A stretch of DNA of 64,000 bases from a virus. How positions within the stretch are numbered: the stretch's first letter is position 1; each line of letters begins with the position of its first letter. Under the pieces are notes generated by a model that saw only the letters and a program-made list of their open reading frames with translations, did no database searches and was not told where the DNA came from. A program made the position numbers and the translations under genes. The stretch lies in the IMG/VR virus record IMGVR_UViG_3300032397_000005, positions 1-64,000 of that record, one strand, 5' to 3'. Positions 19,245 through 51,970 of the stretch are shown one piece after another.

Positions 19245-19255
19245 TCACTTGGACG

Positions 19256-19289
19256 GGGGAGGAGGTGAAAATCCTCCTCCCCTCATTTT
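19256..19289 (+). terminator. Hairpin terminator overlapping promoter copy 2
   Basis: GGGGAGGAGG-TGAAAAT-CCTCCTCCCC followed by TCATTTT. Confidence 0.6.
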
Positions 19290-19330
19290 CTCCTGGACAT
19301 TTTGTTTCTACATGGTAATATGAGAGTATG
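19276..19330 (+). promoter_or_regulatory. Repeated phage promoter, copy 2
   Basis: TGGACA 19294, TAATAT 19316, ATG 19328. Confidence 0.8.
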
Positions 19331-19558
19331 AACAAAATAACGAACAAGAAGAAGCTCACCGACCACCAGCTCCGTTACCTTCGCCGCCTTCGTCGCGGGG
19401 AGCGGGACTTCCCGGCATCCGCCAAGATGCGGGACGCCCTCCACTCGCTTGGTCTCTTGACGCTGGAGCCGGGCGGGCCATCCACCCTTCGGGACGTCTT
19501 GACTCCCGCCGGGGAAGCGGCCGCGGACGCGGGGATGCCGGCGAGGGTGCCGTCATGA
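19328..19558 (+). CDS. Small hypothetical protein (possible winged helix), probably leaderless
   Basis: LT..QL..L...L...GLL....LTPAGEAA; ATG 6 nt after the -10 box with no SD. Confidence 0.65.
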   Translation: MNKITNKKKLTDHQLRYLRRLRRGERDFPASAKMRDALHSLGLLTLEPGGPSTLRDVLTPAGEAAADAGMPARVPS

Positions 19559-20277
19559 AGCGCAGGGTGAAGACGTTGGCTCCGGTTGGGAAACCCAAAT
19601 ATATCGGATACATCCGAGTGAGTACAGAGGAACAAGCGCGGGAGGGGGTCTCCCTGGAGGCGCAGCGGAGGAAGGTTGAGGCGTACGTCTCGTTGGTCGA
19701 CGGGGAGCTGGTGGACGTGCTCTCCGACGCCGGGCTCTCCGGGAAGAACCTGGAGCGGCCGGCGCTCCGTGAGGCGCTGGACCGCGTGGAGGCGGGGGAG
19801 GCGGACGCCCTGATCGTCTACTCCCTGGATCGGCTCTCCCGCTCGACGCTCGACTTCCTGTCCGTGATTGCGCGCCTCCGGGACGCCGGGCGTGGCTTTG
19901 TTTCCGTTCGGGAGCAGATGGACACCTCCACGCCTCACGGGCGGTTCACCATGACAATCCTGGCGGCGCTGGCGGAGATGGAGCGGGAGATGATCGTCTC
20001 CCGCTGCCGGGAGGCATCGACGCTCCTAAAGCGGACGGGGCGGGTCTACGGGCGGACGCCGTTTGGGTTCTCCCGGGAGGGGGATCGTCTGACGGTGGAC
20101 GTGGATGAGAGCGCGTCCCTCGCCGTCATCGAGGACCTCCGGGCGGGAGGGGTCTCGTACGGTGGGATCGCGGAGGAGCTGAACCGCTACGGGGTGCCAC
20201 CAAAGCGCGGATCCCGGTGGTACGCGTCCTCTGTTCGCTCGGTTCTCCTGACCTCCGCTTCCCTTGCTGCTGAGTGA
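19555..20277 (+). CDS. Serine recombinase (resolvase domain plus short Recombinase-type DNA-binding domain)
   Basis: YIRVSTEEQ, SGK..ERPAL, LDRLSRS, DTSTPHGRF...AEMERE, GRTPFGF...IAEELN..G.....G.RW. Confidence 0.92.
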   Translation: MKRRVKTLAPVGKPKYIGYIRVSTEEQAREGVSLEAQRRKVEAYVSLVDGELVDVLSDAGLSGKNLERPALREALDRVEAGEADALIVYSLDRLSRSTLDFLSVIARLRDAGRGFVSVREQMDTSTPHGRFTMTILAALAEMEREMIVSRCREASTLLKRTGRVYGRTPFGFSREGDRLTVDVDESASLAVIEDLRAGGVSYGGIAEELNRYGVPPKRGSRWYASSVRSVLLTSASLAAE

Positions 20278-20374: not shown

Positions 20375-20998
20375 ATGACCCCAGATCTTGCTCTGAGTAC
20401 TTACCGTGCGGATCCTAGTAACTTGAATTTTAGAAAAGTTGCGGAGATTTATAATCCTTGGCTCCATACAACGGGACTGCGGACGCTCCGTGAGTTCCCT
20501 AGTCTACACCCGGGAAATGACCTGGATGACGTCGTGAATGAGGGACTCCACGCAATCTCCCGGAACGCCAGGCGATTCGTCTTCTTCTGCGGCTCCTGCG
20601 GGGACGTGTTCCTGTACTCCGCGGATCTCCGGGCGCACGCCCTCCTGAAGCACTCCGTCCGCGGTCCCGCGGAGCTGGTCAGCATTGGGACGTTCTGTGA
20701 GTGCGGGGCCAGGATGACGATGCGGCGCGCGGCTCGAAACGTACTGACCCCGGAGATCCCGGAGGCGGAGGTGGAACTTGGGGGGGACGACTGGTCTGAG
20801 GATCTGGCGCTTCTCAACCTGCTTGTCAAGCGGGCGGAGGCGCGACTCTCCGAGGGTGCGCGTGCCGTCTTACTCCGCGTGCTCTGCGAGGGTTGCGCGG
20901 ACGTTCACCCAGATCATCGCTGGAGGAGTGTTCGCGCGGGGGTGGAGGAGGTTGCATCTGCACTCTCCTCATTTGGACTACTGAGAGATGTGAGATAA
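20375..20998 (+). CDS. Sigma70-region-2-like transcription factor with an inserted C2H2 zinc finger
   Basis: Y.PWL...DLDDVVNEGLHAISRNARRF, then CGSCGDVFLYSADLRAHALLKH, later LSEGARAVL (region-4-like). Confidence 0.55.
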   Translation: MTPDLALSTYRADPSNLNFRKVAEIYNPWLHTTGLRTLREFPSLHPGNDLDDVVNEGLHAISRNARRFVFFCGSCGDVFLYSADLRAHALLKHSVRGPAELVSIGTFCECGARMTMRRAARNVLTPEIPEAEVELGGDDWSEDLALLNLLVKRAEARLSEGARAVLLRVLCEGCADVHPDHRWRSVRAGVEEVASALSSFGLLRDVR

Positions 20999-21008
20999 AA
21001 CGGAGGAC

Positions 21009-21872
21009 GTGATGAGCAAGTTGAAGAAGGAGAAGGGCAAGGGCAAGTTGAAGAAGGAGAAGGCGGAGGAGAAGGCGGAGGAGAAGGCGGAGGAGAAGGC
21101 GGAGGAGAAGGCGGAGGAGAAGGCGGAGGAGAAGGCGGTTGAGGAGGAGGTGTCGACACCTGGCATCGACGGTCCAAAGTGGAAGCTCATGAACCTGGCC
21201 GGTCTGAGTGAGTCCACCAAGGAAGTCCTGAAGTTCAAAGCGAGCAAACGGACGCTCAAGGGCGCGTACGAGGAGGTTCTTGCGTACCTTCGCGGAAGGA
21301 ACGTCGAGTTGCCCTACAACTGCGGGAGGTGCAACGCGCCGATTGACGCTGAGATGGGCCAGTGCTGGGCGTGCGGCTCCGCGTTCTCGGATTCTACTGG
21401 GGAGGGGGAGCCGGAGATCTCCTTCACGGAGCTCAAGGAGCGCGCAAAGCGACTTGGGATCGAGGTGAAGGGGAAGGATCCGGCAACGCTGGTCGGTGAG
21501 ATCGAGGCGGCGGAGGCGCGGCGACGCGCGTCTAGCAAGGCCAGAGACGCCGACCTGGTGGGGATCGAGGCGGTTCAACTGAACCTGAAACTGGTGGAGC
21601 TGATGGGGGATCGCTGGCGCCCGCGAGTGAGTAATCAGTACACCACCTACTCGGATCCCAACGGAGTTCGCAGGATTGCCGTCATTACGAAGGGGTTGGT
21701 GGTTCACTTCTCCGTTGATGACGGGTTCCTGGACGGGATCAACGGCCTGGTGTTCCTGACAAAGGAGGACCGGCGAAAGAGACATTACGGGAGGACCAAC
21801 TACATCTACAACGGGGACATCTCCAAGGACGTCCTGGAGATCTGCAAGAAGGTCCTCAGGCACTACAGGTGA
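21009..21872 (+). CDS. Hypothetical protein with KAEE repeats and a Zn ribbon
   Basis: (KAEE)6; CGRC...CWAC; GGAGG RBS. Confidence 0.7.
   Translation: MMSKLKKEKGKGKLKKEKAEEKAEEKAEEKAEEKAEEKAEEKAVEEEVSTPGIDGPKWKLMNLAGLSESTKEVLKFKASKRTLKGAYEEVLAYLRGRNVELPYNCGRCNAPIDAEMGQCWACGSAFSDSTGEGEPEISFTELKERAKRLGIEVKGKDPATLVGEIEAAEARRRASSKARDADLVGIEAVQLNLKLVELMGDRWRPRVSNQYTTYSDPNGVRRIAVITKGLVVHFSVDDGFLDGINGLVFLTKEDRRKRHYGRTNYIYNGDISKDVLEICKKVLRHYR
21060..21131 (+). repeat. 12-bp coding tandem repeat, 6 copies (AAGGCGGAGGAG)
   Basis: Seen directly. Confidence 0.9.
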
Positions 21873-21875
21873 GTG

Positions 21876-22769
21876 ATGGACACCTTGGTCCTTGGGTTGG
21901 GGCCCGTTGGGCTGCTGACCTCCTACATCAAGAAGGTCCCGTGCGTTGGGGAGCAACTTGGGGGGGACGCTAGGCTCCGGCGCTTGGTCCCAACCGTCAT
22001 ATGGTACTCTCCGGCGACGTCCGGGATCCTCCAGGAACTGGAGCTCTCTCAGGAGGTGGAGGAGGTCCGGTTTGGTTTCTGGGGTCCGCGTGGTATAACG
22101 CAGGACGTCACACCAACGGAGCGGGCGGAGTACCTCCGTCGGAGTGGACGTGACCCCGCAGCGGAGTTGACCTCCGCAATCTCCTCCGGGGCGTCTGGAT
22201 CTCTACTGGGCTACAAGGTCACCGTTGAGGAGCTCTGCGCCGCGCTGGGGGCGCGTTGTGACGTCAGGGTGGGGAAGGTCTCGGGTATTCTACCGGACCT
22301 GCTTGAAGGGCGCGTGCGCGTTCAGGCGACGTGCGGGGAGCTACTCCCGGACCTCCTGATCAACACCCTCCCGGCGCCGGTGTTCGATAAGCTCCTCCGC
22401 GGGGAGTTCACCACGCGGCCGTGGTGCGCCGGGTCGAAGTGGTTCATCGAGGGGCTGTCCTGGTCCGCTCTACTCCGGGAGGCGCGGGACTCCGGCCTTC
22501 GGTGGCTCTACGTGTCGGATCCGTGCGTCCCGTTTGACCGGGTGACAATCCGTCCGCACGGGTTCTCCTACGAGTTCAACTCACAACCTCCTACCTGGTT
22601 CTGGGATGACGTCGTTGGGGAGGTTGTTGGTCCGCTACCGCTTCAGGTGCTTGGGGATCCGCGGGCGGCGATTGAGTTCGGTGGTCTCGTTCGGCACGTT
22701 GGTCGGATGGCCAGGTGGGATCATAGGATACGGATCCACAACGTGGTTGATGAGGTGGTCTATGTCTGA
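21876..22769 (+). CDS. FAD-dependent oxidoreductase-like protein (UDP-galactopyranose mutase/PPOX-like fold)
   Basis: N-terminal VLGLGPVG (GxGxxG), LINTLP, YVSDP.VPF.RVT, C-terminal GRMARW. Confidence 0.65.
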   Translation: MDTLVLGLGPVGLLTSYIKKVPCVGEQLGGDARLRRLVPTVIWYSPATSGILQELELSQEVEEVRFGFWGPRGITQDVTPTERAEYLRRSGRDPAAELTSAISSGASGSLLGYKVTVEELCAALGARCDVRVGKVSGILPDLLEGRVRVQATCGELLPDLLINTLPAPVFDKLLRGEFTTRPWCAGSKWFIEGLSWSALLREARDSGLRWLYVSDPCVPFDRVTIRPHGFSYEFNSQPPTWFWDDVVGEVVGPLPLQVLGDPRAAIEFGGLVRHVGRMARWDHRIRIHNVVDEVVYV

Positions 22770-23742
22770 GGCGTTCAAGGACCTTCTGGCGCGGCAGCTC
22801 GAGTTCAACCTGCGCTTCTTCGCGGACCGGGGCCTTGGGGACGTCCGCCTCCTCTCCGCGCGGGATCGGGTGGAGTGGACGAAGCAGTTCATCCTCCACG
22901 TAGAGGGGGAACTTCATGAGCTTCTAGGGGAGACATCCTGGAAGATGCACCGCCCGTCGCGGGATGAGGCTGTCCGCTCTAATGTTTTGGAGGAGTGGGT
23001 CGACTGCTTCAAGTTCCTCCTCGGGCTGGCGAACGTCTGGGACTTCTCCGCGGCGGAGATCGAGGCGGAGTTCCACCGGAAGACATCCGTGGTCGAGTAC
23101 CGGTACGGGATGGAGCAGCGCCTGCGCGCCATCCGACCCGGGGTCGACCACTTAGTTGGCGTGGACATCGACGGGGTCCTCTCGGACTACCCCGACGTGT
23201 TCTGTGAGTGGGTCTGCCAAACCGTCCCGGAGTTCTCCTTCGAGAAGCGGGGGGACCTGCCCTTCCTCTCCACGCTCCGGGAGGAGCTTGGGTCGAAGCG
23301 ATACCGCGAGCTGAAGGACCGCTACCGGGAGAGCGGGGCGAAGCGGTCCCAGCGGGTCCGCCCGGGCGCGAAGGCGCTCCTCGACGGGCTCCGCGCGGCG
23401 GGGTTCTCCGTCATCCTCCTCTCCGCGCGGCCATACTGGCGCTTTTCACGCATCTACGCGGACACGCTGGAGTGGCTCGCTGAGAACGGGCTCCGGCACG
23501 ACGCGGTCCTCTTTCACCCGGAGAAGCACCGGAAGATCTTGGAGGACTTTCCCGGGCTCCTGGCGATGGTGGAGGACGACCCGGTTGTTGCTGCGGAGAT
23601 GGTCTCCGTGGGGGTATCCGTGGTTCTTGTGAGTAACCAGCTGAACGAGCGTCAAGAGGTTCCGGGCGCGGTGCGCGTGGCCGGTCCTATTGAGGCGCTT
23701 GAAGCAATCCTTGAGATTGCGTTGAGGAGAGTGAGAAAGTGA
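22762..23742 (+). CDS. All-alpha NTP pyrophosphatase (dimeric dUTPase/MazG-like) fused to a HAD 5'-nucleotidase
   Basis: GELHELLGETSWKMH...LEEWVDCFKF; VGVDIDGVL, LSAR, K, MVEDD. Confidence 0.8.
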   Translation: MSEAFKDLLARQLEFNLRFFADRGLGDVRLLSARDRVEWTKQFILHVEGELHELLGETSWKMHRPSRDEAVRSNVLEEWVDCFKFLLGLANVWDFSAAEIEAEFHRKTSVVEYRYGMEQRLRAIRPGVDHLVGVDIDGVLSDYPDVFCEWVCQTVPEFSFEKRGDLPFLSTLREELGSKRYRELKDRYRESGAKRSQRVRPGAKALLDGLRAAGFSVILLSARPYWRFSRIYADTLEWLAENGLRHDAVLFHPEKHRKILEDFPGLLAMVEDDPVVAAEMVSVGVSVVLVSNQLNERQEVPGAVRVAGPIEALEAILEIALRRVRK

Positions 23743-24812
23743 GTGACAGAGCGGAGAAGATCAGGGAGATGCGTCGGAGGATGGGGACGCTTCCCCACCA
23801 GGCGCCGAAGGTCAGCACGCGGTTCTTCCGCGGGGTGGAGGGGATCCAGGTTTCCCTCATCGACGGTCCGGTGAACCCGTATCGGGCGATCTTCACCATG
23901 GCAACGTCCACCTGGGGGGCGGCAACGGCGGACGTTGCGGCGCGTTGGTCCTCCGTTACCCCGGAGGATCGCTTCGAGGTGATTAGATCCGTCCTCCTTG
24001 GGCAGGCACTCCCGTTGGCGCTCGAGGCACCAAAGTTCACCTTTTCCATCGCCGGTCTCTCCCGCTGGTCATTTGACCAGATTGTCCGGGCGCGTCTTGG
24101 GGTGGTCTACGCTTCTCTGGGGACGCGGGACAACTGCCACGCGGACATCCCGTTCCGCTTTCACGAGGCCACGTGGCGGAATCCGGACAAGTTGCGACTT
24201 GCGATGGAGGTTGCTCTACGCGCTAAGACGACGTACGGGATGTTCATGGACTCCGGACTTTCCTCCTGGCAGGAGGCGCGGGAGTTGCTCCCAATCTCGG
24301 TGGTTCACCGCTTTGTGATGGCCATCAACTACGCCTCCCTGCGGACAATGTGCGCGTCTCGGATGACATTCTCCGAGGCGGAGGACACGGTTGCCGTGGC
24401 GTGGCTCCTCCGGGATCGCCTCCTCCAAGAGGATGCCTACCCGTACCTGGCCGCCTGGCTTCGTCCGCGGTGCGACGTTGTTGGATCCTGCTGCTACCAC
24501 CGGGCGTACACCTCGGCGGAGGCGTTTGGGTGTCTCTACAGATCCTGCGGTAGAAACCCGGTCAAGTCGGCTCCCGGGATGCCTCCAATAGACTACGAGG
24601 TGGCGGAGTTTAACGAGGCGTGCTCCGACAGGGAGACGATCTCCCGTCAACTCGGAATCGGGATTCCCGGTTCTGAGGAGGGTCGAGCGGAGAATATCAC
24701 CTTCGCGGACCTGTCTCCGCGAGATAATCACCTGCTGGAGGAGAATGGAAACGCTTTCTACCACGGTTCATCCGGAGTCGATAGCTTGGGTGAATTTGGG
24801 TGGGGAGGATGA
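23739..24812 (+). CDS. Divergent ThyX-family flavoprotein (canonical RHRx7S motif altered)
   Basis: LE...FTFSIAGLSR...QIVRAR..., QEARELLP, N.ASL......R; Cys-rich C-terminus. Confidence 0.7.
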   Translation: MSDRAEKIREMRRRMGTLPHQAPKVSTRFFRGVEGIQVSLIDGPVNPYRAIFTMATSTWGAATADVAARWSSVTPEDRFEVIRSVLLGQALPLALEAPKFTFSIAGLSRWSFDQIVRARLGVVYASLGTRDNCHADIPFRFHEATWRNPDKLRLAMEVALRAKTTYGMFMDSGLSSWQEARELLPISVVHRFVMAINYASLRTMCASRMTFSEAEDTVAVAWLLRDRLLQEDAYPYLAAWLRPRCDVVGSCCYHRAYTSAEAFGCLYRSCGRNPVKSAPGMPPIDYEVAEFNEACSDRETISRQLGIGIPGSEEGRAENITFADLSPRDNHLLEENGNAFYHGSSGVDSLGEFGWGG

Positions 24813-25369
24813 TCCTAGCGTTGGAGGGAATCTCCGCGGTTGGTAAGTCATCCATCGCTACGGCGCTGAGTCGGGCGTTTGGCTTCGACGTGTATCAGGA
24901 TCAGGTGCGTCACGGGATCCTCGGGGAACTCTCCCGGCGGGAGATGTACCTGACCGGGAATCAGTGCGGCCTGGACCTCAGCTTTTTCTCGGGGCTCCTG
25001 GACTTCGTGGCGGACCGCTGGTGCCTGTCTTCCTACGTCTACGACACCTGGGGCGACGTTTCGCTCGAGGGAGCGTACGTGACGCAACTCCTCCCAATGT
25101 ACGTCAGGGCGTCTTCTCGGGTGTACCTCCTTCGATTGGACCCGGAGCTTGCGTTGTCTCGAATGCTCAAGCGGTCCGCTCGGGCGGAACGCGCGGTTGG
25201 GCCGTCCTACTCCCTGCAGCAGCTCCGGGATCTGGATGTAGGTTTTTCCCGGGCTGCGCGCATCTGGGGGGATCTTGGGGGTTGCGTCCTCGAGGTGGAC
25301 GCAACGGACGTTGCGGCGGCGGCGCGAGTGGTCATCGAGGACGTTCTGCTGTCCGGGATTCTCCGGTGA
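24809..25369 (+). CDS. Thymidylate-kinase-like dNMP kinase
   Basis: ILALEGISAVGKSS; ADRW..SSYVY; L.LDPE.AL.R...R. Confidence 0.8.
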   Translation: MILALEGISAVGKSSIATALSRAFGFDVYQDQVRHGILGELSRREMYLTGNQCGLDLSFFSGLLDFVADRWCLSSYVYDTWGDVSLEGAYVTQLLPMYVRASSRVYLLRLDPELALSRMLKRSARAERAVGPSYSLQQLRDLDVGFSRAARIWGDLGGCVLEVDATDVAAAARVVIEDVLLSGILR

Positions 25370-25944
25370 GGATGCTGGTTGAGAGGACCGTGGACTGCCG
25401 TGCTTGCGACCTGGGGTTCCTTGGGCTCCCCAGGTGCGTGGGGTATGGTCCGGTGGTAGCGGAGGTGGCGGTTGTTGGGATCAACCCCTCCGTCCGGGCG
25501 GTGGACGGGGAGACCGCGTTCCGCGTTGCGGATTTTGTTCGAGTTGGGGAACGCGCGGCGGGGTTGAGGTTGACGGGGGCGCTCCGGGCGTTTTGGCACC
25601 TCTCCAGGCTCTCCGGTCTTGAGCTCAGTCTCGCCTACGTCACAAATGCGGTCAAGTGCGCAACGCCGGGGAATCGAGTACCGACCGCGGAGGAGATCGA
25701 AGCGTGCCTGAGAAGCCACTTGACGTTGGAGATGAGTTCCTTGGGGAACCTGCGGAGGGTCTTGGTTCTGGGGAGGATCGTTGGCGCCCACCTCGGGTTA
25801 AGCGACTTCGGGTGCCACCGGACGCTGGACGGTACGCTGGCGGAGGCAACGCTCCTCCGTCACCCGGTGGCCACGCTCCGGCGGTGGACGAGACTCCCGG
25901 TGGAGGCGGCCGCGTGGCGTTCCGCTCTGGGTCGTCCCTCCTAG
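25366..25944 (+). CDS. Uracil-DNA glycosylase superfamily protein (family-4-like Fe-S cysteines)
   Basis: CRACDL, VGYGP..A.V.VVGINP, YVTNAVKC...GNR.PT.EEIEAC, VLVLG, LRHP. Confidence 0.8.
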   Translation: MRMLVERTVDCRACDLGFLGLPRCVGYGPVVAEVAVVGINPSVRAVDGETAFRVADFVRVGERAAGLRLTGALRAFWHLSRLSGLELSLAYVTNAVKCATPGNRVPTAEEIEACLRSHLTLEMSSLGNLRRVLVLGRIVGAHLGLSDFGCHRTLDGTLAEATLLRHPVATLRRWTRLPVEAAAWRSALGRPS

Positions 25945-25994
25945 CGGACGCGGACTCCCAGGCACTCGTCTCAGACATCTCCGGGGACGCGCGG

Positions 25995-28900
25995 ATGAAG
26001 GTCGTTGTCCACAAGGAGTACGCCCAGAGCATCTCCGCGGAGGAGGTGACGGACAAGCGGGACGTGGTTGACCTCCGGGACGCCACGGACTTCGACGACA
26101 TGAAGGACCTCCGCTTCTTCAACGAGCGGGAGTATTACCACGGTTGGTCGGAGGGGGAGGACATTGTCCTCCTACGGCGGGACCCGGAGACGGGGAGGCG
26201 GATCAAGGAGGTCCACCCGTTCGAGTGGTACTTCTACCTGGCGCGGGAGGACTTTGACCGACTCCCGGCGGACAAGGTGGCGTGGCTCTGCCGCCACCAC
26301 GCCAAGCGGGTCGAGCCGGATCCGGCCTTCCCGGATCGCTACGTGCGCGTGTACGTCCCCTATAAGTACCCTAAGATCGATCACGATCGGATCTTCCAGC
26401 GGGTGGGGGATCCGGACGCCGGCGCAATGTGGTTGGCACCGTACGTCCTGGGTGAGCGGCCGCACGCCGTCCGGTTCCCCCAGGATCGGGAGCGCTGGAC
26501 GCACCTTCACGAGGCGCTGGAGTGGTGTCAGCGGAAGGGGCTCACTCCGCTCGAGGCGGACCTGACGCCGAAGCAGCGCTTCCTGACGGACTACGACCTG
26601 CACATTCAGGCGCGCTACCACCTGGGCTTCGTCGACATCGAGACGGACGACACCGTCGGCGGCTTCGACAACAAGGAACACAACCGGATCCTCTCTATCG
26701 CCTGGGAGGGGGACCGCGTGGAGAAGGACCCGGATGATCGCGGATTCGTCATCCTGGAGGCGGAGACGGACGAGGCGGAGCGGGAGATGCTCCTGCGCTT
26801 TAAGAGGGAGTGCCTGGCGCGGTACGACGTTGTGGCGGCTTGGAACGGGTTCGGCTTTGACTTCCCCATCATCATCTACCGGTTCCGGAAGCACCGGATC
26901 CCGATTGACTGGAGGTACCACCTCTTTGCGGATCCGCTACCGGTGTTCAAGCGGCACTACGTCCGGGCGGGGGCGGACGCCATCTCCTACTCCCTGGACG
27001 CAATTGGGTCGGCCGTCCTGAAGATGAGCAAGCTGGACTGGCGGACGGAGTTCCGCCGACGTCAACCTGGGGTGGTCCCGAAGTTCATCAACCTCTACCG
27101 GAGGGAACCGGGGCTCCTGGAGGAGTACAACCGCTACGACGCCACGATACTCCGGAAGCTCGAGGCGTTCACCGGCTTCGTAGCCATCGAGCAGATCTTC
27201 TGCCGCGTTGCCAACGGCTTCGCCAACGATTGGAACATCTCGACCAAGATCGACCAGCTCCTCTTGAAGAAGGGGTTCAAGGACGGGCACCATTTCCCGA
27301 CTCGGTTCTGGTCTCCTGGTCGCCCGGAGCAGTACGAGGGGGCCTACGTTTTCCCACCCAAGGTGGGGATGCACGAGAACGTCTGCGCCTTCGACTTCAA
27401 GTCCCTGTATCCGTCGATGGTCCGGGCGTTCAACATCTCCCCGGAGAGCATTGTCAAGGCGGTGGACCGGGAGGACTTCCTCCGGAAGTACGGTCCGGAC
27501 TCCCTCTGCCGTTGTCCGGTTGTTGACTGCGGCGGCGTGATGAAGGGTGGGGCCACCTTCCGGAAGGATCGGGAGGGGTATATCTCCCAGATGTTTGTCC
27601 GGACGCTGGAGCGGCGGCGGAAGTACACGACGCTCCAGTCCGAGCGACTCAAGGAGGTTGGGAGCACTCAGGATGACCTGTTCCTCCTCTACTACCGCCT
27701 GGCCTACTCCTTCAAGCGACTGGGGCTCTCCTTCTACGGTGATTTGGGGAACCCGCGCTCGCGCTACTACGACACGGAGTTGGCGGAGGCCATCACGCTC
27801 GCTGGGCGGTTCTTCATTCAGCAGACGGCCAAGTATGCGGAGGAAGTTGGCGGATATAAAGCAATTTATGGGGATAGCGTCACCGGGCGCCGGAACCTGG
27901 TGCTGCTCGACCCCGCCGGGCGGCTCCGCGTCCTCCCGGTCGAGCGTCTCTGGGCGGAGCTTTCGGGGGAGGCGGAGGCGCGGTCTGACGGTAAGGAGGT
28001 GAAGCGGGCGGACGGCTGGCGCTCGATGTCCGCGCTCGAGGGTGGGGGCTCTACCTGGGCGCCAGTGGCGGAGGTGATCCGGCACCGGACCGGGAAGCGG
28101 ATCCTGCGTCTGACGACCCCGGAGGGGCAGGTGGAGGTGACCGAGGACCACGGCGTCACCGTCCTGCGGGACGGAGCCCTGGCGGAGAGGACGGCGGCGG
28201 AGGTTCACCGGGACGGGGAGGAGCTGGTCCGCGTGGACGTCCCGCCGGTGGCGGAGGTGGCGGAGGTGGACCTCCTTGCGGAGGTTGGTTCCTACCGCCG
28301 GGAGTACGCGCGGGAGGTCTCCCAGGCGCGGCACGTCCGGCGCGCGGAGGTGCGACTGGGGAGCGAGCGCGCGTCGGACGGGATGGACTTCCTCCTGCTG
28401 ACGTTCGAGGGGGAGATCGGGTTCGAGCCTACCGAGCGGGTCCGCTTCCGACGCCGCTTCCGGGTGGGGACCCCGGAGCTTGATGCCCTCCTGGACCTCC
28501 TCGGGACGTTCTGCGCGGAGGGATCCGTGTCCGTTGTCGGGGACCGCTTTGGCGGGGCTTCTATCGGGATGGAGGACCGCGCGCGGATGGCGGAGCTTTC
28601 CGCCGTCTACCAACTCCTGTGCCCAACCGCGGGGTCTGACGGGCTGACCGATGACGGGCGGAAGCTCCAGATGCGCTGCGAGTTGATCTCCTTGCTCTTT
28701 GCGCGACTCTGCGGCGTCGGGGCGGACGGGAAGCGGGTCCCCGGGTTCGTCTACCACCTCCCGGAGCGGGAGCGGCGGCGCTTCCTCTCCGCCTACCTGC
28801 GCGGGGACGGGCACTTCTGGAATGACCGCCGCGGGGGCGCTACCTGGGAGGACTTCGACGGGTGGGAGTGCGGGAGTAACTCCCTCGAGCTTTCCTCCGG

Positions 28901-30119
28901 CCTGGCCGTCCTCTGCCGTCAGCTCGGGGTCCCCTACGGGGTCCGGACGGGCGTCTCCGCGCTCTCCGGTAACGTCTGGTACGGGCTCCGGACGAAGAAG
29001 CTTCGCGGGCGCAGTCACTGCTTCCTGCGGCGGCACGGGCGCGCCACCCCGCGGCTGGAGGAGGTCCCCGGGGACGGGTTCGTCTACGACCTCTGTGTAC
29101 CGGGATCCCAGCGATTTACGGAGGCGCTCGGTTGCGTTTCCCTCCACAACACTGATTCGCTGTATATCCAGCTCGCGCCCACCGGGAGGACCTGGTCGTC
29201 GGAGGAGGCGCGCATCGCGGAGCTCAACGGGAAGGCGGAGAAGTTCCTCGAGTACGTCCAGACGCGGTACGACGCGCACCTCCGGTCCTTTGGTTGCCGG
29301 ATGGACTGGAACGTGGTTCTACTTGAGTACGAGGACGTGTACGACCGCATCTTCTTCGTGGTCAAGAAGCGGTACGCGGGGCGGCTCCTGGTTCACAAGG
29401 GGGAGCGGACGGATAACGTGGAGGTGAAGGGGCTGGAGGTGATGCGCTCCGACTGCTCCGGGATGACGCGTCGCCTTCAGCAGCGGGTCCTCGACGGCAT
29501 CCTCATGGAGCGGATGAGTGGGGAGGAGATTGAGCGGACGATCATTGCGCCGGAGTTCACCCGTTGCGCGGAGAACCAGCTGACCGCGGCGGAGGTCTCC
29601 ATTGGGAAGGGCATCTCCAAGGAGCCGGAGCGGTATAAGACGAAGGCGCTCCACGTCAAGTTGGCGGAGGAGATCCGGGCCACCGGGCGGGAGTTCTTCG
29701 TTGGGATGAAGGTTGAGTACGTGGTCACCTCCGTGAAACCGAACTTGAACGGGGTCCTCCGGGAGGACTTCGAGGACGCGGCGGGCGCGATCACCTACGC
29801 GGCGGAATACTACTGGGACCGCGTCATCTACCCGGCAAGTTTGCGGATCTTACAGGTCTGCTTTCCGGAGAAGGACTGGAAGCGGTGGTTGGTGGAGAAC
29901 CGGCGGCGGCGGCGGGACTTGGTCCAGCGCTACCAGCGCTGGTTCCTGGATCCCAAGCGCGTGGGGAAGGCGGTTGAGCGGATCCGAGAGAACGTACGTG
30001 GTCTACTTCAGGAGGAGGATCTGGTGGAACTTCGGCGCAGTCCACGCATCAGGACTATTGCTGGGAGAGGGAGTGAGCATGAGACGCGTGAAGAAGTTGA
30101 CCTCAGCGGCGACGCTTGA
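25995..30119 (+). CDS. polB: Family B DNA polymerase with intein
   Basis: DIETD (ExoI), WNG.GFD (ExoII), YNRYD (ExoIII), FDFKSLYPS, K...LSFYG, YGD^TDS, KKRYAG, KGLE..RSD. Confidence 0.95.
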   Translation: MKVVVHKEYAQSISAEEVTDKRDVVDLRDATDFDDMKDLRFFNEREYYHGWSEGEDIVLLRRDPETGRRIKEVHPFEWYFYLAREDFDRLPADKVAWLCRHHAKRVEPDPAFPDRYVRVYVPYKYPKIDHDRIFQRVGDPDAGAMWLAPYVLGERPHAVRFPQDRERWTHLHEALEWCQRKGLTPLEADLTPKQRFLTDYDLHIQARYHLGFVDIETDDTVGGFDNKEHNRILSIAWEGDRVEKDPDDRGFVILEAETDEAEREMLLRFKRECLARYDVVAAWNGFGFDFPIIIYRFRKHRIPIDWRYHLFADPLPVFKRHYVRAGADAISYSLDAIGSAVLKMSKLDWRTEFRRRQPGVVPKFINLYRREPGLLEEYNRYDATILRKLEAFTGFVAIEQIFCRVANGFANDWNISTKIDQLLLKKGFKDGHHFPTRFWSPGRPEQYEGAYVFPPKVGMHENVCAFDFKSLYPSMVRAFNISPESIVKAVDREDFLRKYGPDSLCRCPVVDCGGVMKGGATFRKDREGYISQMFVRTLERRRKYTTLQSERLKEVGSTQDDLFLLYYRLAYSFKRLGLSFYGDLGNPRSRYYDTELAEAITLAGRFFIQQTAKYAEEVGGYKAIYGDSVTGRRNLVLLDPAGRLRVLPVERLWAELSGEAEARSDGKEVKRADGWRSMSALEGGGSTWAPVAEVIRHRTGKRILRLTTPEGQVEVTEDHGVTVLRDGALAERTAAEVHRDGEELVRVDVPPVAEVAEVDLLAEVGSYRREYAREVSQARHVRRAEVRLGSERASDGMDFLLLTFEGEIGFEPTERVRFRRRFRVGTPELDALLDLLGTFCAEGSVSVVGDRFGGASIGMEDRARMAELSAVYQLLCPTAGSDGLTDDGRKLQMRCELISLLFARLCGVGADGKRVPGFVYHLPERERRRFLSAYLRGDGHFWNDRRGGATWEDFDGWECGSNSLELSSGLAVLCRQLGVPYGVRTGVSALSGNVWYGLRTKKLRGRSHCFLRRHGRATPRLEEVPGDGFVYDLCVPGSQRFTEALGCVSLHNTDSLYIQLAPTGRTWSSEEARIAELNGKAEKFLEYVQTRYDAHLRSFGCRMDWNVVLLEYEDVYDRIFFVVKKRYAGRLLVHKGERTDNVEVKGLEVMRSDCSGMTRRLQQRVLDGILMERMSGEEIERTIIAPEFTRCAENQLTAAEVSIGKGISKEPERYKTKALHVKLAEEIRATGREFFVGMKVEYVVTSVKPNLNGVLREDFEDAAGAITYAAEYYWDRVIYPASLRILQVCFPEKDWKRWLVENRRRRRDLVQRYQRWFLDPKRVGKAVERIRENVRGLLQEEDLVELRRSPRIRTIAGRGSEHETREEVDLSGDA
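27876..29150 (+). mobile_element. Intein (425 aa) with LAGLIDADG homing endonuclease, inserted in polymerase motif C
   Basis: Splits YGD|TDS; begins SVTG, block B VTEDHG, LLGTFCAEG and FLSAYLRGDG motifs, VYDL, ends LHN before Thr. Confidence 0.93.
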
Positions 30120-37214: not shown

Positions 37215-38078
37215 TTGAAGCGGGTCTTGAAGCGGGTCAGGCGGGAGATCACGCCGGGGTTTGTCTGGGAGGACGTGCCCGGGGAGCACGTCCTGGCCTG
37301 CGGAGACGCCCGGGACGCTGCTTTCCTGAGAGAGGTCCTCGGGCGCGTGACCGGTCCGGTTGACCTCCTCCTGACGGATCCACCCTACGCGGTGTCGTCT
37401 GACGCGGTCATTGGGAACATGAGTGGGCATAAGGACCACGTCCTGAACGAACCCTGGGATCGACTCTCCGAACCGGAGTTGGAGGAACTCCTCGGCTCGA
37501 TCTGCAGGACCGCGGCGGAGCTCCTTCCCGGGGGGAACGTCTGGATCTGGACCTCCGACTGGTGGCTCTCCTTCCTCAAGCGCTGGATGAGGACGTTGGG
37601 TTACCAGGTCCGCTCGTCCTTCGTCTGGTGCAAACCAAACCCGGCTTGCTCCGTTCGGAAGCGGAACTTCGTCTCCGCCTGTGAGTTTCTGGTGGTTGCT
37701 CAGGGGGTGGGGGCGTTCTTTGACTTGGGCGCGATGCCACGTCAGCGAAACTACTTCGTGGCGCTCCCGGAGGGGGAGTGGGCGCCGGCGGTCTGCCCGA
37801 ACTGGGTCGAGCGCGGCGTGGTCTCCCAGGCGGAGCGGGTCAAGCGCGGGGACGGTGTGGACCTGAATCGAGCGCAGAAACCTCTGGACCTCACGGAGGC
37901 GCTGGTCCGGGCCGGTTGCCCACCGGGCGGTCTGGTACTGGACGTCTGCGGGGGGACGGGGACCACGCTCGTGGCGGCGGACCGGGCGGGGCGCCGGTGC
38001 GCTTACCTGGACGCGGACCCGGCGCAGGTGCGGGCGGCCGTCAACCGGTTGTTGCGGGATCGGAGGGCGCGTGCCTGA
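37215..38078 (+). CDS. N4-C/N6-A DNA methyltransferase (beta class)
   Basis: TDPPY, WCKPN, QKP..L, VLDVCGGTGTT. Confidence 0.88.
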   Translation: MKRVLKRVRREITPGFVWEDVPGEHVLACGDARDAAFLREVLGRVTGPVDLLLTDPPYAVSSDAVIGNMSGHKDHVLNEPWDRLSEPELEELLGSICRTAAELLPGGNVWIWTSDWWLSFLKRWMRTLGYQVRSSFVWCKPNPACSVRKRNFVSACEFLVVAQGVGAFFDLGAMPRQRNYFVALPEGEWAPAVCPNWVERGVVSQAERVKRGDGVDLNRAQKPLDLTEALVRAGCPPGGLVLDVCGGTGTTLVAADRAGRRCAYLDADPAQVRAAVNRLLRDRRARA

Positions 38079-41615: not shown

Positions 41616-41879
41616 ATGAGCGAGCCAACCTACGTGAAGATCTACCGGGTCAGCGAGGCGTTTGAGGTGGAGGTGGATGAGGACGCGTTGGGTCCTCCCG
41701 GTCCCGGGGATGAACCCGGGCGACCTGCGCTCCGGGAGGCGCTCCGGATGGTTCGCGCTGGGGAGCTGGAGGGCGGTCCACCGGACGCTGAGTTCGTGGC
41801 CTTGGCCTGGGATGAGACGGCGCAGGTGAGTGCGGCCGCGCTGATGGGGCTGGAAGAAGTGAGGGGGAGGCGGCGATGA
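41616..41879 (+). CDS. Hypothetical protein
   Basis: ATGA overlap with the next gene. Confidence 0.55.
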   Translation: MSEPTYVKIYRVSEAFEVEVDEDALGPPGPGDEPGRPALREALRMVRAGELEGGPPDAEFVALAWDETAQVSAAALMGLEEVRGRRR

Positions 41880-42502: not shown

Positions 42503-42849
42503 TGGACGGCTACGCGGTGGTGAGGAAGTCGACGTTGGCCTGGCTCCTCGAGCTCTATCGGGAGGCGGGGGAGCGGCCGGACCTCCCGGAGGAGGTGGCG
42601 CGTGACCTCCGCGTACAGGTGACGCGGGACGTGAGCGTGCCCGTTGACAAGGATCGCCTCCGGGTGGTTGGTCCGGTCCTCTCCGCGGAGGAGCACGTCC
42701 AACTCCTGGAGGCGTGTGATGACTTGGATCTCCCCCGAGAGAAGCAGGCCGGGGCGTTCTGGCGCCTGGTGGTTCAGGTGGTCCATGAGATGCTGCGAAA
42801 CGAGGGGGATGCGGTACTGAGACTCATTGGAGGAGAAGATGGCAAGTGA
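42502..42849 (+). CDS. Hypothetical protein
   Basis: TGATG coupling. Confidence 0.55.
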   Translation: MDGYAVVRKSTLAWLLELYREAGERPDLPEEVARDLRVQVTRDVSVPVDKDRLRVVGPVLSAEEHVQLLEACDDLDLPREKQAGAFWRLVVQVVHEMLRNEGDAVLRLIGGEDGK

Positions 42850-48639: not shown

Positions 48640-48913
48640 GCCAGATGTTCACGTTGACGGGACCTCCTTGATGGTGAACGGAGTCAGGATCCACCTCCAC
48701 TTCCTGGACGCGTTCCGGGAGCTCCCGGAGGGGGGAACGGTGCCGCTGGTCAAGGTCTACTGCCAGGGCTGTCGGAAGTACAAAGTCGTCTCCCGGGTTG
48801 GCCTCCGTCACATGGGCGGCGGGGTGGTTGCCCTCCAGTCGAACTGCCACGAGTGTCGGGGCGTCATGAACGCCAGGAAGGCGGAGGAAGATGGGAGAAG
48901 GGCCACTCGCTGA
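48623..48913 (+). CDS. Hypothetical Zn-ribbon protein
   Basis: YCQGC...CHEC. Confidence 0.55.
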   Translation: MTREVEPDVHVDGTSLMVNGVRIHLHFLDAFRELPEGGTVPLVKVYCQGCRKYKVVSRVGLRHMGGGVVALQSNCHECRGVMNARKAEEDGRRATR

Positions 48914-49763
48914 GAGACCCCTGATTGCGGCGGTTAGGGACGCCTTGTCGGAGGCGGAGCGGCGCGGGCGGGAGGCGGGGCTCCGGGAGCGGCTCCGGAT
49001 CCCAAGGCTCCCCTGGGATCAGTTCTTCATGCTCCACGCTCACCTGACGGCCACTCGGTCCACGTGTGATCGCGGGCCGGAGCTCCTCCTGGATCCCGGG
49101 CGGCACGGCGTGGGGGCGGTGATTGTCCGGGAGAACCGGATGGTGGCCGGGGGCTACAATGGGTCACCTCCTGGGGAACCGCACTGCTCGGATCTGGTTT
49201 GCGCCAATTGCGCCGCGGACTACGTGAGGGACCCCATCGACCCGTCTAAGGACGACCGTGGCTTTGCCCGGGCGGAGATCAATGCGGGGAGGTGCCCGAT
49301 CTGCGGCGGGAAGATCCTGGGTGGTCACATAATGCGGGATGGTCATTGCGTCAGAACACTGCACGCGGAGGAGAACGCCTTGCTCCAGTGCGCCCTGGAC
49401 GGGACCACCCCGGAGGGGGCCGCGATCTACACGTCCGCCTCTGCGTGCTGGGACTGCTCCAAGCGGATCCTGAGGGCCAAGGTGGCGCGCGTGGTCTTTG
49501 CGGACGTGTATGACTCGCGCTACGGGCTCTCACTTGACGCCGTGGAGTTGCTCCGGCGGAATGAGGTGCAGATTGAGTACCTGGACGTTCGAGATGCGCT
49601 TAGTTGGGCCAGAGCTTCCTCTTTCAAGGTAGTAGGGGCCCGGGGTCGCGTCCGGTCCCACCCAGAGCGACTTGAGCGAGGAGAGGACGGGGGTGAGCCA
49701 AAGCAGGAGACCAGGAAGGGTCATCCGGTGGTGAATAACTCACCCGGGGATTGGGATCCCTGA
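48891..49763 (+). CDS. dCMP deaminase with an inserted Zn ribbon
   Basis: WDQFFM..A...ATRSTC, VGAVIV, GYNGSP.G..HC, HAEENAL, CWDC. Confidence 0.88.
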   Translation: MGEGPLAERPLIAAVRDALSEAERRGREAGLRERLRIPRLPWDQFFMLHAHLTATRSTCDRGPELLLDPGRHGVGAVIVRENRMVAGGYNGSPPGEPHCSDLVCANCAADYVRDPIDPSKDDRGFARAEINAGRCPICGGKILGGHIMRDGHCVRTLHAEENALLQCALDGTTPEGAAIYTSASACWDCSKRILRAKVARVVFADVYDSRYGLSLDAVELLRRNEVQIEYLDVRDALSWARASSFKVVGARGRVRSHPERLERGEDGGEPKQETRKGHPVVNNSPGDWDP

Positions 49764-51142: not shown

Positions 51143-51970
51143 ATGAGTAAATTTAGCATTTTGGAGGTTGTGGAACCGCACGCGTACCTTGTGGGGGAGG
51201 CGGGAAGCAGCCCGGAGACTTGGGCGGAGCGGGCACTTCTGCTCATCGAGGAGTGCGGGCGGGTCTCCCACAAGAGCGAGGGGCGGATCAAACCCGGGAG
51301 CGCGGTCCCGTTCGTGCGGAAGGTGGCCATCGAGTGGGGGCACGAGTCGATTCTGGAGCACGCCAGCCTGACGGTCTGCTTCGTGGGCTCCCGGTCGATG
51401 AGTCACCAGCTGGTTAGACATCGAATCGCCGCCTACACTCAGGAGTCCCAGCGATTCTGCGACTACGCGACGCCGGCACTTGGTCTGGACGAACAACCGG
51501 AGTGCGAGCGGGTGAGTCGACTGAAGGTGGTCGTCCCCCCGTCCGTCTCCGCGGACCTCCCGGCGGGGAGCCTGGTGTACCAAGATAACGTGCGGATAAC
51601 CGACGCTAATTGCGTCCTGGAACGCCTCAGCGTGAGGCGAAGTGAGGAGCTGCCTCCGGAGGGAGTAGACCTCAGATCCCCAGTCGGGGTCTTCCTCGCG
51701 TCCGTCATGAGCTCATACGCCACCTATCAGAAACTTCGGGAGCTCAACATACCGGCGGAGGACGCGCGGGAGGTCCTGCCAAACGCCACGAAGACGGAGG
51801 TGTACACCACCTTCAACCTCCGGGAGTGGCGCCACTTCTTCAAGATGAGACTGGACAAGCACGCTCAGTGGCAGATCAGGAAGGTTGCCCGGGAGGTCTT
51901 CAACTTCCTCCTGGCGGTCTGCCCTGTGGTGCTGGAGGGGTTGAGGACGCACTCCGGGGAGGTGATATGA
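51143..51970 (+). CDS. thyX: Flavin-dependent thymidylate synthase (canonical)
   Basis: GHESILEH, SHQLVRHRIAAYTQESQRF (RHRx7S), EDAREVLPNA, NLREWRHFF..R...HAQWQIR. Confidence 0.93.
   Translation: MSKFSILEVVEPHAYLVGEAGSSPETWAERALLLIEECGRVSHKSEGRIKPGSAVPFVRKVAIEWGHESILEHASLTVCFVGSRSMSHQLVRHRIAAYTQESQRFCDYATPALGLDEQPECERVSRLKVVVPPSVSADLPAGSLVYQDNVRITDANCVLERLSVRRSEELPPEGVDLRSPVGVFLASVMSSYATYQKLRELNIPAEDAREVLPNATKTEVYTTFNLREWRHFFKMRLDKHAQWQIRKVAREVFNFLLAVCPVVLEGLRTHSGEVI

Follow-up and report, generated by a model that had tools for sequence, protein, structure and literature searches.

A conserved flavoprotein, dNTPase-phosphatase and ThyX-like gene set in the replication module of an uncultured phage, probably for an altered DNA pyrimidine

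We describe a gene set from an uncultured tailed bacteriophage (105 kb, bacterial host) that, judged from its sequence, probably makes an altered DNA pyrimidine. Comparison of related loci indicates that its conserved core is a trio formed by a flavoprotein (gene A), a MazG/HAD fusion protein (gene B) and a ThyX-like protein (gene C), and that a kinase, a uracil-DNA-glycosylase-superfamily protein (UDG) and an SDR are accessory members of the module. For the altered-pyrimidine mechanism as a whole, with a non-canonical ThyX-fold enzyme, we estimate a probability of about one in three. A base-substitution pathway had been proposed in a sequence-only reading of the window (the whole stretch of 64,000 nucleotides that was analysed); what that reading had observed was confirmed, and its interpretation is partly supported.

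Gene structure, folds, motif changes and co-conservation were observed directly. All five ORFs (A to E) were confirmed at the strand and positions first described (Table 1); they are co-directional, their successive stop and start codons overlap, as seen in both translations and sequence, and the gene for a family-B DNA polymerase (PolB) lies immediately 3'. The domain identities proposed earlier (ThyX fold, flavoprotein, dNTPase-HAD, dNMP kinase, UDG-like, PolB) were all correct, and profile scores and motif verified the intact ThyX and the dCMP deaminase reported elsewhere in the genome. The only homologues of the ORF upstream of A came from the close relatives L002-L006 and L018, each lying directly 5' of A; the stop of this ORF abuts the start of A, and the two are therefore possibly co-transcribed. 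Neither a convincing promoter nor a strong terminator was found in 20375-30119, and the signals nearest to the block were a terminator at 19255-19283 and a promoter-like site at 19294. A single translationally coupled replication-module operon would best explain this arrangement.

Table 1. Features of the block and of its pathway context (window positions).
Feature	Coordinates	Strand	Start and overlap	Basis
Upstream ORF, 287 aa	21009..21872	+		no match in Pfam and PHROG searches
Gene A, small FAD-type flavoprotein, UGM/protoporphyrinogen-oxidase/amine-oxidase fold, 298 aa	21876..22769	+	ATG 21876 (alternative GTG 21873)	motifs, AF2, Foldseek, VIA-align
Gene B, all-alpha dNTP pyrophosphatase (dimeric d(C/U)TPase/MazG type) fused to NT5C-like HAD phosphatase	22762..23742	+	ATG 22762; 8 nt overlap with A	Pfam, PHROG, PDB profile
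Gene C, ThyX-fold paralogue, remodelled active site, Cys/His-rich C-terminal extension	23739..24812	+	GTG 23739; GTGA overlap with B	Pfam Thy1 E 9e-11; AF2 and Foldseek
Gene D, P-loop dNMP (thymidylate-kinase-like) kinase	24809..25369	+	ATG 24809; ATGA overlap with C	GxxxxGKS P-loop; PHROG 761
Gene E, Fe-S UDG-superfamily protein	25366..25944	+	GTG 25366 (GTGA overlap with D) or ATG 25372	Pfam UDG 39.6 bits
PolB with intein-like insert in motif C	25914..30119	+	likely GTG 25914 or ATG 25995	Pfam DNA_pol_B E 3e-39
dCMP deaminase (pathway context; dUMP supply)	48891..49763	+		PHROG 174 E 7e-37; TIGR02571 E 1e-36
Canonical ThyX (pathway context; ordinary dTMP synthesis)	51143..51970	+		TIGR02170, Thy1, motif

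Gene C had been taken for a degenerate ThyX paralogue, which was wrong, as it belongs to a subfamily that is conserved and has invariant residues of its own. It shares the fold of canonical ThyX (T. maritima TM0449, M. tuberculosis ThyX; PF02511, TIGR02170; Foldseek E 3e-10), and its AF2 model (pLDDT 93) matched only ThyX and PolB UMP-methylase structures in Foldseek, at 18-20% identity. However, gene C scored 20.7 bits against TIGR02170, under the cut-off of 87.9, and thus failed the equivalog test, whereas the true ThyX of the same genome reached 134.7 bits (Thy1 E 3.5e-49; motif RHR...ESQRF). Gene C is also extended at its N-terminus and ends in a tail of about 110 aa rich in Cys and His. 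When residues were mapped using M. tuberculosis ThyX and the phage's own canonical ThyX as references, the ThyX signature residues His, Ser and Tyr proved to be substituted in the subfamily (RHR to RAR, S-x-R-Y to G-T-R-D), with H69, H96, S105, Y108 and H91 of M. tuberculosis corresponding to L91, A118, G128, D131 and D113, and with Leu, Gly and Asp at the positions of T. maritima His53, Ser88 and Tyr91. In ThyX, His53 stacks on the folate and the reduced flavin, Ser88 hydrogen-bonds the flavin, and mutation of Tyr91 slows flavin oxidation about 1000-fold (PMC11940539). In contrast, the phosphate- and base-binding arginines were retained (equivalents of M. tuberculosis R87, R95, R97, R107 and R199), as were the Ser-Arg pair and both RxR arginines.

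The invariant residues of gene C include R109, F112-D113-Q114, R117, R119, G128, R130-D131-N132, R181, R208, C245, C251, H254 and C270. In a profile search, 90 clusters reached E<=1e-30, and the number rose to 753 at the looser limit of E<=1e-10; more than 140 homologues had intact ORFs with 40 invariant or near-invariant positions (mean column identity in the subfamily, 33-44%). The subfamily is well conserved, virus-only and strongly constrained. Inteins were present in some of its members.

Gene A, also from a virus-only family, has a GxGxxG motif at its N-terminus and GRxARWDH at its C-terminus, and its AF2 model (pLDDT 93) matched amine oxidases and UGM in Foldseek (E 1e-11 to 1e-9). The best VIA-align match was UDP-galactopyranose mutase 4dsg (Z 19.5, 292 of 298 residues aligned), followed by PPOX (Z 17.7), with renalase-type proteins at Z 15.5 (3kkj) and 13.9 (3qj4). 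Gene B matched Pfam dUTPase_2 (28.1 bits, cut-off 22.9) and the NTP-PPase and phosphatase families of PHROG. Its PDB profile matches were the C. jejuni dUTPase 1w2y (E 1e-8), described as prototypic for the dimeric d(C/U)TPases, among which T4 dCTPase is counted, as well as Leishmania and T. cruzi dUTPases and DCTPP1; the HAD side matched the 5'(3')-deoxyribonucleotidase 2jao (E 0.02), and its motifs (DIDGVL, S/T, K, EDD) are all intact. In L007, L008 and L012, each half of B is encoded by its own gene. No trimeric dUTPase was found in the genome, of which the MazG half is the sole dUTPase-like domain. Gene D matched the thymidylate kinase family PHROG 761 (E 5e-7), with dNK, Thymidylate_kin and TIGR00041 below threshold. 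Gene E exceeded the Pfam UDG cut-off of 24.3 bits and has four cluster cysteines, GINPS as motif A and HPVA as motif B; family-4 matches were weak. PolB is 66-72% identical to the polymerases of L002-L006 and L018, from which the intein-like insert (about 27876-29150, about 425 aa, with a weak LAGLIDADG_3 match) is absent.

About 20 IMG/VR contigs carried the trio, with differing gene orders, and its linkage recurred in 3 further MAG contigs. Co-conservation exceeded what chance would give: in 19 of the 21 related viral loci, a MazG/HAD homologue lay no more than 10 kb from the ThyX-like gene, and in about 18 an A-family flavoprotein was near it. Gene D homologues or TMK analogues were inside the module in most relatives, an SDR epimerase/RmlD-like gene accompanied it in 10 of the 21 loci and in Hawkeye, and a UDG domain was within 10 kb in 9; in L017 it forms a single protein with PolA, and in L021 with DnaE. 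The sequence-only reading had staked its pathway on co-conservation in related phages, which held for the trio; the UDG and the kinase are accessory, and the coupling to PolB that it had claimed is not specific, since the trio adjoins PolA or DnaE in relatives. The paralogue was also surveyed for coexistence with canonical ThyX, which was frequent: both occurred in G000, G003, G004, G005, G006 and G012, that is, in four of the six complete genomes, arguing against simple redundancy. The complete genomes G001 and G009 have the paralogue without canonical ThyX or ThyA, which fits a paralogue that makes dTMP. As first supposed, the literature and 50,697 phage records yielded no characterised pathway that combines these genes; nor was a cultured phage with this exact ThyX-like subfamily found.

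For the altered-pyrimidine mechanism, we infer all substrates, the product and its incorporation into DNA as follows. The MazG half of B and the dCMP deaminase would bring dUMP into the pool. Gene C would bind a dNMP through the kept ThyX arginines together with flavin, and would add at C5 a group other than plain methyl, since the residues with which ThyX stacks folate and drives its reductive step are replaced; 5-hydroxymethyl-dUMP is the most likely product, with a longer carbon side chain as a further possibility. Gene A may re-reduce or handle the flavin, or tailor the product. The HAD half would strip the competing monophosphate, kinase D and host NDP kinase would yield the triphosphate, and the phage polymerase would insert it, with the UDG-like protein as a guard against uracil. 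Replacement of T would be only partial because canonical ThyX is retained, and would parallel that in SP-15, likewise with two Thy1 genes. We counted in support the confident ThyX fold that yet failed the equivalog test, and the persistence of trio linkage despite gene-order changes and three replicase families. Counted against were the HAD substrate, the weakest link, as destroying dTMP would be futile if canonical ThyX makes it; the paralogue-only genomes G001 and G009; Pbunavirus and actinophages with a related RxR-type ThyX alone; and a genome in which no GT-1 or GT-2 glycosyltransferase was found.

Phages of the SPO1, phi-e and PBS2 type encode a dTTPase-dUTPase, dTMP nucleotidase, dCMP deaminase, dUMP hydroxymethylase and hmdUMP kinase, and T4 uses gp56, gp42 and gp1. 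The proposed mechanism follows the same scheme, in which a pyrophosphatase, a nucleotidase, a deaminase, a C5-transferase and a kinase serve the phage's own polymerase; however, its C5 enzyme has the ThyX rather than the ThyA fold, it has a second, obligatory flavoprotein of UGM fold, and pyrophosphatase and nucleotidase are fused. That one of two Thy1 copies serves a modified base is already published, as a hypothesis only, for Bacillus phage SP-15, whose gp130 was proposed as hydroxymethyluridylate synthase (PMC5977210). SP-15 resembles this phage in its two Thy1-family genes, in its own UDG-associated polymerase and in the idea that the second copy supplies a modified pyrimidine precursor with T partly replaced, but no A-family flavoprotein was detectable there and its Thy1 proteins were unmatched by the gene C subfamily profile. 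Polymerase-UDG coupling, including a PolA-UDG fusion, is reported from phages with T-modified DNA (PMC13697223).

Pbunavirus DNA contains hypermodified thymidine, for which the responsible genes are unassigned (PMC12191111). Its members PB1, F8, 14-1 and LS1 have gp66, gp72 (ThyX) and gp74 in a replication-module operon beside the replicase, with distant homologues of gene C (hhalign probability 97.6; the beginning of the Cys motif is shared) and of A (95.9); similarity of the HAD protein to gene B was not detectable. Their ThyX is of a different subfamily (T-H-Q...RTR...TSRA versus F-D-Q...RAR...GTRDN) and, unlike here, is the sole ThyX. In RB69 and DLP3, flavin-using ThyA homologues make 5-hydroxy-dCMP (PMC13326640), which resembles our proposal in pairing a thymidylate-synthase-family enzyme with flavin, in a non-methyl C5 group at the mononucleotide level and in a dNMP kinase partner; the fold (ThyA) and substrate (dCMP, demonstrated experimentally) differ, and these enzymes are not homologous to those described here.

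A tentative alternative, which we consider a serious minority possibility, is that C is a divergent, perhaps two-component thymidylate synthase and the DNA is canonical. Lacking its own NAD(P)H-handling histidines, C would have its flavin reduced by A, which resembles renalase-type NAD(P)H-oxidising flavoproteins in size and fold; the MazG half, with no other dUTPase-like domain in the genome, would be the phage dUTPase, and the HAD half a salvage or house-cleaning nucleotidase for pool hygiene. Every dUMP-binding arginine is kept in C. The paralogue is the only thymidylate-synthase-like gene of G001 and G009, and an RTR/RSR-type variant is the sole ThyX in the more distant, cultured phages Pbunavirus LS1 and Streptomyces phage Dryad, so plain dTMP synthesis is possible. 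However, four of the six complete genomes also have fully canonical ThyX, an 18%-identical duplicate with a partner flavoprotein is hard to explain in a phage for one product, the residues equivalent to His53, Tyr91 and Ser88, whose mutation cripples ThyX, are all replaced by different invariant residues, and A comes closest in structure to UGM rather than to a reductase.

It is rather unlikely that C follows the logic of T4 in a ThyX fold and places a methyl, hydroxymethyl or hydroxyl group on C5 of dCMP, with the d(C/U)TPase half of B converting dCTP to dCMP like gp56, D in the role of gp1, and canonical ThyX and dCMP deaminase sustaining dTMP like td and cd. Each of the five T4 functions has an analogue in the genome, most complete genomes keep a canonical thymidylate synthase, as C-replacing phages do, and among PDB entries the MazG half comes closest to 1w2y, a dimeric dUTPase. 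The subfamily-specific, invariant His-to-Asp change (D113) beside the base-binding Gln is reminiscent of the Asn-to-Asp switch that sets specificity in ThyA-type dCMP enzymes (PMC13326640). Nevertheless, the known flavin/folate C5 transferases all use uracil (PMC8989533), and activity on cytosine is not known for any of them; the arginine with which ThyX polarises O4 of uracil (R199 in M. tuberculosis, R208 in gene C) is invariant, the HAD half would have no role, and dUMP-derived bases better match uracil-glycosylase coupling.

We regard as improbable a trio that makes a small molecule (a modified deoxynucleoside or sugar nucleotide, released last by the HAD phosphatase) for host takeover, signalling or counter-defence. 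A fused nucleotidase would naturally end a pathway at the nucleoside, actinophages have an A-HAD pair without an adjacent ThyX-like gene, and the SDR gene counted above would suit such a product; but the module always lies within the replication module, adjoining a polymerase, its usual companion dNMP kinase points to triphosphates, and the inteins in ThyX-like genes suggest a replication-essential enzyme. Finally, that C is a decaying, non-functional ThyX copy in an incidentally operon-like order is hardly credible: the weak Pfam score and the lost RHR and SxRY motifs would fit, but the confident fold, new conserved motifs, conserved linkage and the intact ORFs and constrained positions of its many homologues contradict it.

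Five genes (A to E) lie directly upstream of PolB on the + strand, and their ORFs and stop/start overlaps (22762/22769, 23739/23742, 24809/24812 and 25366/25369) were as described in the sequence-only reading. The canonical ThyX and the dCMP deaminase that it had placed elsewhere in the genome proved to be real and intact. No convincing promoter or strong terminator was found within 20375-30119.

Features discussed in the text, in window positions unless a related locus (L) or genome (G) is named
Feature	Coordinates	Remarks
Promoter-like site and strong terminator	19255-19321	Only ones of the region
Serine recombinase	19555-20277	240 aa; resolvase domain, Recombinase domain represented by its start only; between UvrD-type helicase and genes A to E, downstream of the promoter-like site and terminator
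Gene A	21876-22769	Flavoprotein fold
Gene B	22762-23742	Dimeric-dUTPase/MazG-type pyrophosphatase fused to HAD phosphatase
Gene C	23739-24812	ThyX-like paralogue
Gene D	24809-25369	P-loop kinase, thymidylate-kinase/dNK type
Gene E	25366-25944	UDG-superfamily protein
tRNA-Pro(GGG)	25438-25540	ARAGORN, 103 nt, wholly within gene E; probably a false positive
PolB insert	27876-29150	About 425 aa, intein-like
DNA methyltransferase	37215-38078	N6/N4 type; in recombination/repair part of the module
NAD-dependent epimerase/dehydratase (SDR)	41876-42849	N-terminal half (208 aa), then overlapping 116-aa ORF; may be split or frameshifted
dCMP deaminase	48891-49763	
Canonical ThyX	51143-51970	
UDG-DnaE fusion	L021:5734-9957	UDG domain at N-terminus of an intein-bearing DnaE
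PolA-UDG fusion	L017:10920-13319	UDG domain at PolA C-terminus; likewise in L010 and L020
ThyA-like fragment	L007:9333-9989 (G004:C1:24672-25013)	PF00303, E 1e-13; one TAG within the match; directly adjoins ThyX-like gene

The AF2 model of the gene C protein (pLDDT 93) matched ThyX-family chains only (3gwc, E 2.9e-10; 1o2a, TM-score 0.74 normalised by target length). The protein passed the superfamily-level Pfam Thy1 model (42.3 against 24.8), and scored 20.7 bits with the TIGR02170 thyX equivalog, below the cut-off of 87.9, compared to 134.7 for the canonical ThyX. Two references, the canonical copy of this phage and the M. tuberculosis enzyme, were used to map its residues. The ThyX motif RHRxxS(x)4SxR(Y/F) is absent and reads RAR...G-T-R-D, and the histidine that stacks on folate and flavin (T. 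maritima His53, M. tuberculosis His69) is missing, both across 118 family members. The histidine equivalents in gene C are L91, A97, D113 and A118. In M. tuberculosis numbering, the conserved substitutions are H69 to Leu, H75 to Ala, H91 to Asp, H96 to Ala, S105 to Gly and Y108 to Asp, and the arginines equivalent to R87, R95, R97, R107 and R199 are retained. In T. maritima ThyX, His53 stacks on folate and reduced flavin, Ser88 is hydrogen-bonded to the flavin, and Tyr91 is a probable general acid, mutation of which slows flavin oxidation ~1000-fold (PMC11940539). Gene C also carries an extra Cys/His-rich tail (P-x-C-D-x4-C-x-Y-H ... S-C-G-R).

The paralogue had been called degenerate, and this description did not hold, as the number of homologues and the invariant positions indicate a distinct, conserved subfamily. 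More than 140 metagenome homologues were found at 38-82% identity, and some 18 positions were invariant and about 50 near-invariant in an alignment of 118 of them. When 1.84 billion representatives were searched with the subfamily profile, 90 clusters (at 50% identity) matched at E<=1e-30, a number that rose to 753 with E<=1e-10. Motifs inspected in the 150 best profile matches formed a continuum of RxR-type ThyX variants, including F-D-Q...R-A-R...G-x-R-D-N in the group of gene C and T-H-Q...R-T-R...G-G-R-D-N in another variant. Among 185,579 species-representative genomes, the subfamily occurred on 7 MAG contigs only and in 0 isolate genomes. No cultured phage carrying it was found, the sole tblastn matches being to Pbunavirus ThyX (~25% identity), and the block had no megablast match among 50,697 phage records. 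Several members (P0093, P0142, P0147, P0168, P0177 and P0184) are 480-717 aa long with profile matches in two pieces, and one of these bears intein Pfam domains; inteins have repeatedly invaded the ThyX-like gene.

Gene A has GxGxxG at its start and GRxARWDH at its end, and neither Pfam nor NCBIfam placed it in a family at E<=0.01. Its AF2 model (pLDDT 93) has the fold of UDP-galactopyranose mutase (UGM), PPOX and amine-oxidase flavoproteins, and the best VIA-align match was the UGM 4dsg (Z 19.5, 292 of 298 residues aligned), with a Z of 16.9 for the bacterial UGM 3hdq. PPOX and amine oxidases lay within 2-4 Z units of the top match, which was ~2 units above the protoporphyrinogen oxidases. 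By sequence, gene A falls outside the UGM (GLF) family and its full-length domain set, at 298 aa compared to ~365-470 aa for UGMs, and nearly all clusters resembling it are viral. The role of flavoprotein A is predicted from its fold alone. Gene B scored 28.1 bits against 22.9 with Pfam dUTPase_2, and its profile matched dimeric dUTPases at E 1e-8; its acidic metal-binding motifs (E..E and EE..D) are conserved in the alignment, and HAD motifs I-IV are intact and conserved (DIDGVL, LLSARP, EKH and VEDD). Relatives of the HAD half are of NT5C type, the L017 orthologue passing Pfam NT5C (25.0 against 24.8), and matches to mdN/cdN structures in the PDB were weak (E 0.02 to 1). No trimeric dUTPase was found in the genome.

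Gene E was assigned by Pfam UDG (39.6 against 24.3) and scored below the family-4 cut-offs (NF040953, 42.9 against 250; TIGR00758, 38.1 against 125). Motif B is HPVA, and motif A is GINPS, not the family-4 GE(A/G)PG with its catalytic Glu. The protein therefore pairs family-4-type Fe-S cysteines (C9, C12, C97 and C113) with a MUG/TDG-like motif A, in which Asn takes the place of the Glu of family 4; in close relatives the motif is G(I/F)(N/G)P(A/G).

The block had also been proposed to be coupled to PolB, and its co-conservation in related phages had been set as a test. We examined 21 related IMG/VR loci obtained by an alignment-based scan; a single-protein pattern scan of viral contigs gave no match. 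In 19 of these, a gene B homologue lay no more than 10 kb from the ThyX-like gene, in most cases right next to it, with the two halves encoded by separate genes in L007, L008 and L012. The A family was present in about 18, a count that takes in a shorter 250-aa form aligning over both FAD motifs, and the trio of A, B and C was repeated on 3 further MAG contigs. Co-conservation was thus borne out for the trio, and the TMP-type kinase (most loci), an SDR epimerase/RmlD-like gene (10 loci), the UDG domain (9 loci, sometimes fused to PolA or DnaE) and dCMP deaminase were accessory. The coupling to PolB was not constant: PolB adjoins the trio in close relatives of the window, and eight loci have PolA in this place and four have DnaE. 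Gene orders included A-B-C, C-A-HAD with MazG apart, and A-B several kb from C. Since gene order and the adjoining replicase vary, the trio persists through rearrangement and replicase exchange, and this speaks for functional coupling more strongly than inherited synteny would.

Polymerase-UDG fusions have been linked to phages with T-modified DNA (PMC13697223). The UDG domain at the PolA C-terminus in L017, L010 and L020 is at the opposite end compared to the N-terminal UDG of SPO1-, N4- and SP15-like PolA (PMC13697223). The SDR gene, of the class found in the window, lies inside the ThyX-like module in the 10 relatives, unlike in the window itself.

Phage nucleotide-pool pathways for a modified pyrimidine are a known kind of system. 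In the literature and databases searched, we found no description of this enzyme set, namely a C5 enzyme of the ThyX fold together with an obligatory flavoprotein of the UGM fold and a pyrophosphatase fused to a nucleotidase. The T4-type hydroxymethylcytosine pathway uses a ThyA-fold dCMP hydroxymethylase, whereas this genome has no ThyA (PF00303) and its candidate is of the ThyX fold. GT-1 and GT-2 glycosyltransferases were absent. A ThyA homologue uses flavin to make 5-hydroxy-dCMP (PMC13326640), and therefore thymidylate-synthase-family enzymes have repeatedly been recruited for new C5 chemistry. SP-15 has two Thy1 genes, one of which is a hypothesised hydroxymethyluridylate synthase (PMC5977210); SP-15 was rejected as a member of the group, having no A-like gene and being unmatched by the subfamily profile.

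We consider the most likely reading, with a probability of roughly one in three, to be a pre-replicative pathway in which dUMP is substituted at C5 by the ThyX-like enzyme to give a product other than dTMP. The simplest product would be 5-hydroxymethyl-dUMP. The MazG half of gene B and dCMP deaminase would supply dUMP, kinase D would carry the product onward, and T would be replaced in part, as in SP-15.

The main ordinary rival is a two-component thymidylate synthase, accompanied by dUTPase and nucleotidase housekeeping. The distribution of canonical ThyX bears on this. Among genomes carrying the ThyX-like gene, G000, G003, G004 and G005 (CheckV at least 90% complete) and the incomplete G006 and G012 encode canonical ThyX as well. 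G001 and G009, also at least 90% complete and with terminal repeats, encode the paralogue only, which favours the two-component synthase, as does the presence, in Pbunavirus and actinophages, of a related RxR-type ThyX as the sole one. We regard this rival as a real possibility, on balance doubtful. ThyA (PF00303) was present in no record apart from the fragment in G004, which also has canonical ThyX.

In a serious T4-like variant, the ThyX-like enzyme would act on dCMP. This would account for the retention of canonical ThyX, but is without chemical precedent, and we hold it to be rather unlikely. The dUMP reading and the dCMP version jointly correspond to the general idea of the sequence-only reading, that a ThyX-fold enzyme and a second flavoprotein make a non-canonical pyrimidine nucleotide for PolB, and we give this idea about even odds.

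In Pbunavirus phages F8 and 14-1, ~1/4 of T positions, in TG context, are occupied by thymidine derivatives with masses of 362 and 390 Da, with no genes assigned (PMC12191111). By profile comparison, genes C and A are distantly related to gp72 and gp66, respectively, of Pbunavirus LS1; gp74 was rejected as a gene B orthologue, similarity being undetectable by BLASTP or hhalign. By our own arithmetic, the masses fit C14H22N2O9 and C15H22N2O10, respectively, and these formulas fit C-linked products and O-linked 5-hmdU derivatives equally well. The C-linked products belong to an improbable reading, a new reaction performed jointly by the ThyX-like enzyme and flavoprotein A. In this reaction, the reduced-flavin N5 iminium would be formed with an aldose (UGM chemistry) and not with formaldehyde/CH2-THF (ThyX chemistry), and dUMP C5 would capture it. 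The phage polymerase would incorporate the resulting deoxyuridine nucleotide, either C-glycosyl or with a polyol in C-C linkage, and the sugar donor would be prepared by the SDR and HAD proteins that often accompany the module.

Actinophages such as Hawkeye and Dryad carry an A-like 'oxidoreductase' and HAD 'nucleotidase' pair beside DnaE, with an RSR-type ThyX a few kb from the pair in Dryad and a ThyX-type match in Hawkeye. Hawkeye gp72 and Dryad gp58 were rejected as ThyX-like (hhalign probability <1%).

If the paralogue makes a non-canonical pyrimidine, such an activity would be shown for the ThyX fold for the first time. It would define a large enzyme family confined to viruses, with 90 to 750 clusters at 50% identity, and would also give the obligatory UGM-fold partner a function. 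Distant relatives are found in Pseudomonas therapy phages (Pbunavirus, with thymidine hypermodification lacking assigned genes) and in many SEA-PHAGES actinophages, and because of this the result would bear on restriction evasion, the sequencing quality of such phage DNA and the design of phage therapy. A two-component thymidylate synthase would also extend ThyX enzymology, though to a lesser degree.

The 105,443-bp IMG/VR virus record, of which the window is the first 64 kb, was rated complete by CheckV. GC content of the window is ~65%, and the + strand carries essentially all genes. The phage encodes DnaB, a UvrD-type helicase, RecA and an SbcCD-like pair, along with a class II ribonucleotide reductase, an N6/N4 DNA methylase and an amidase with a peptidoglycan-binding domain. 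Because the amidase with this domain, bacterial RecA and DnaB are encoded, we assign it to the tailed phages of bacteria; the same genes ruled out a haloarchaeal virus, suggested by weak PolB matches (25% identity). Given the methyltransferase, the phage DNA likely bears at least methyl marks, independent of the A-E block. The insert in PolB interrupts motif C (..IYGD / SVTGRR...VSLHN / ..), is absent from the PolB of L002 and L018 (66-72% identical), and contains a weak LAGLIDADG_3 match.
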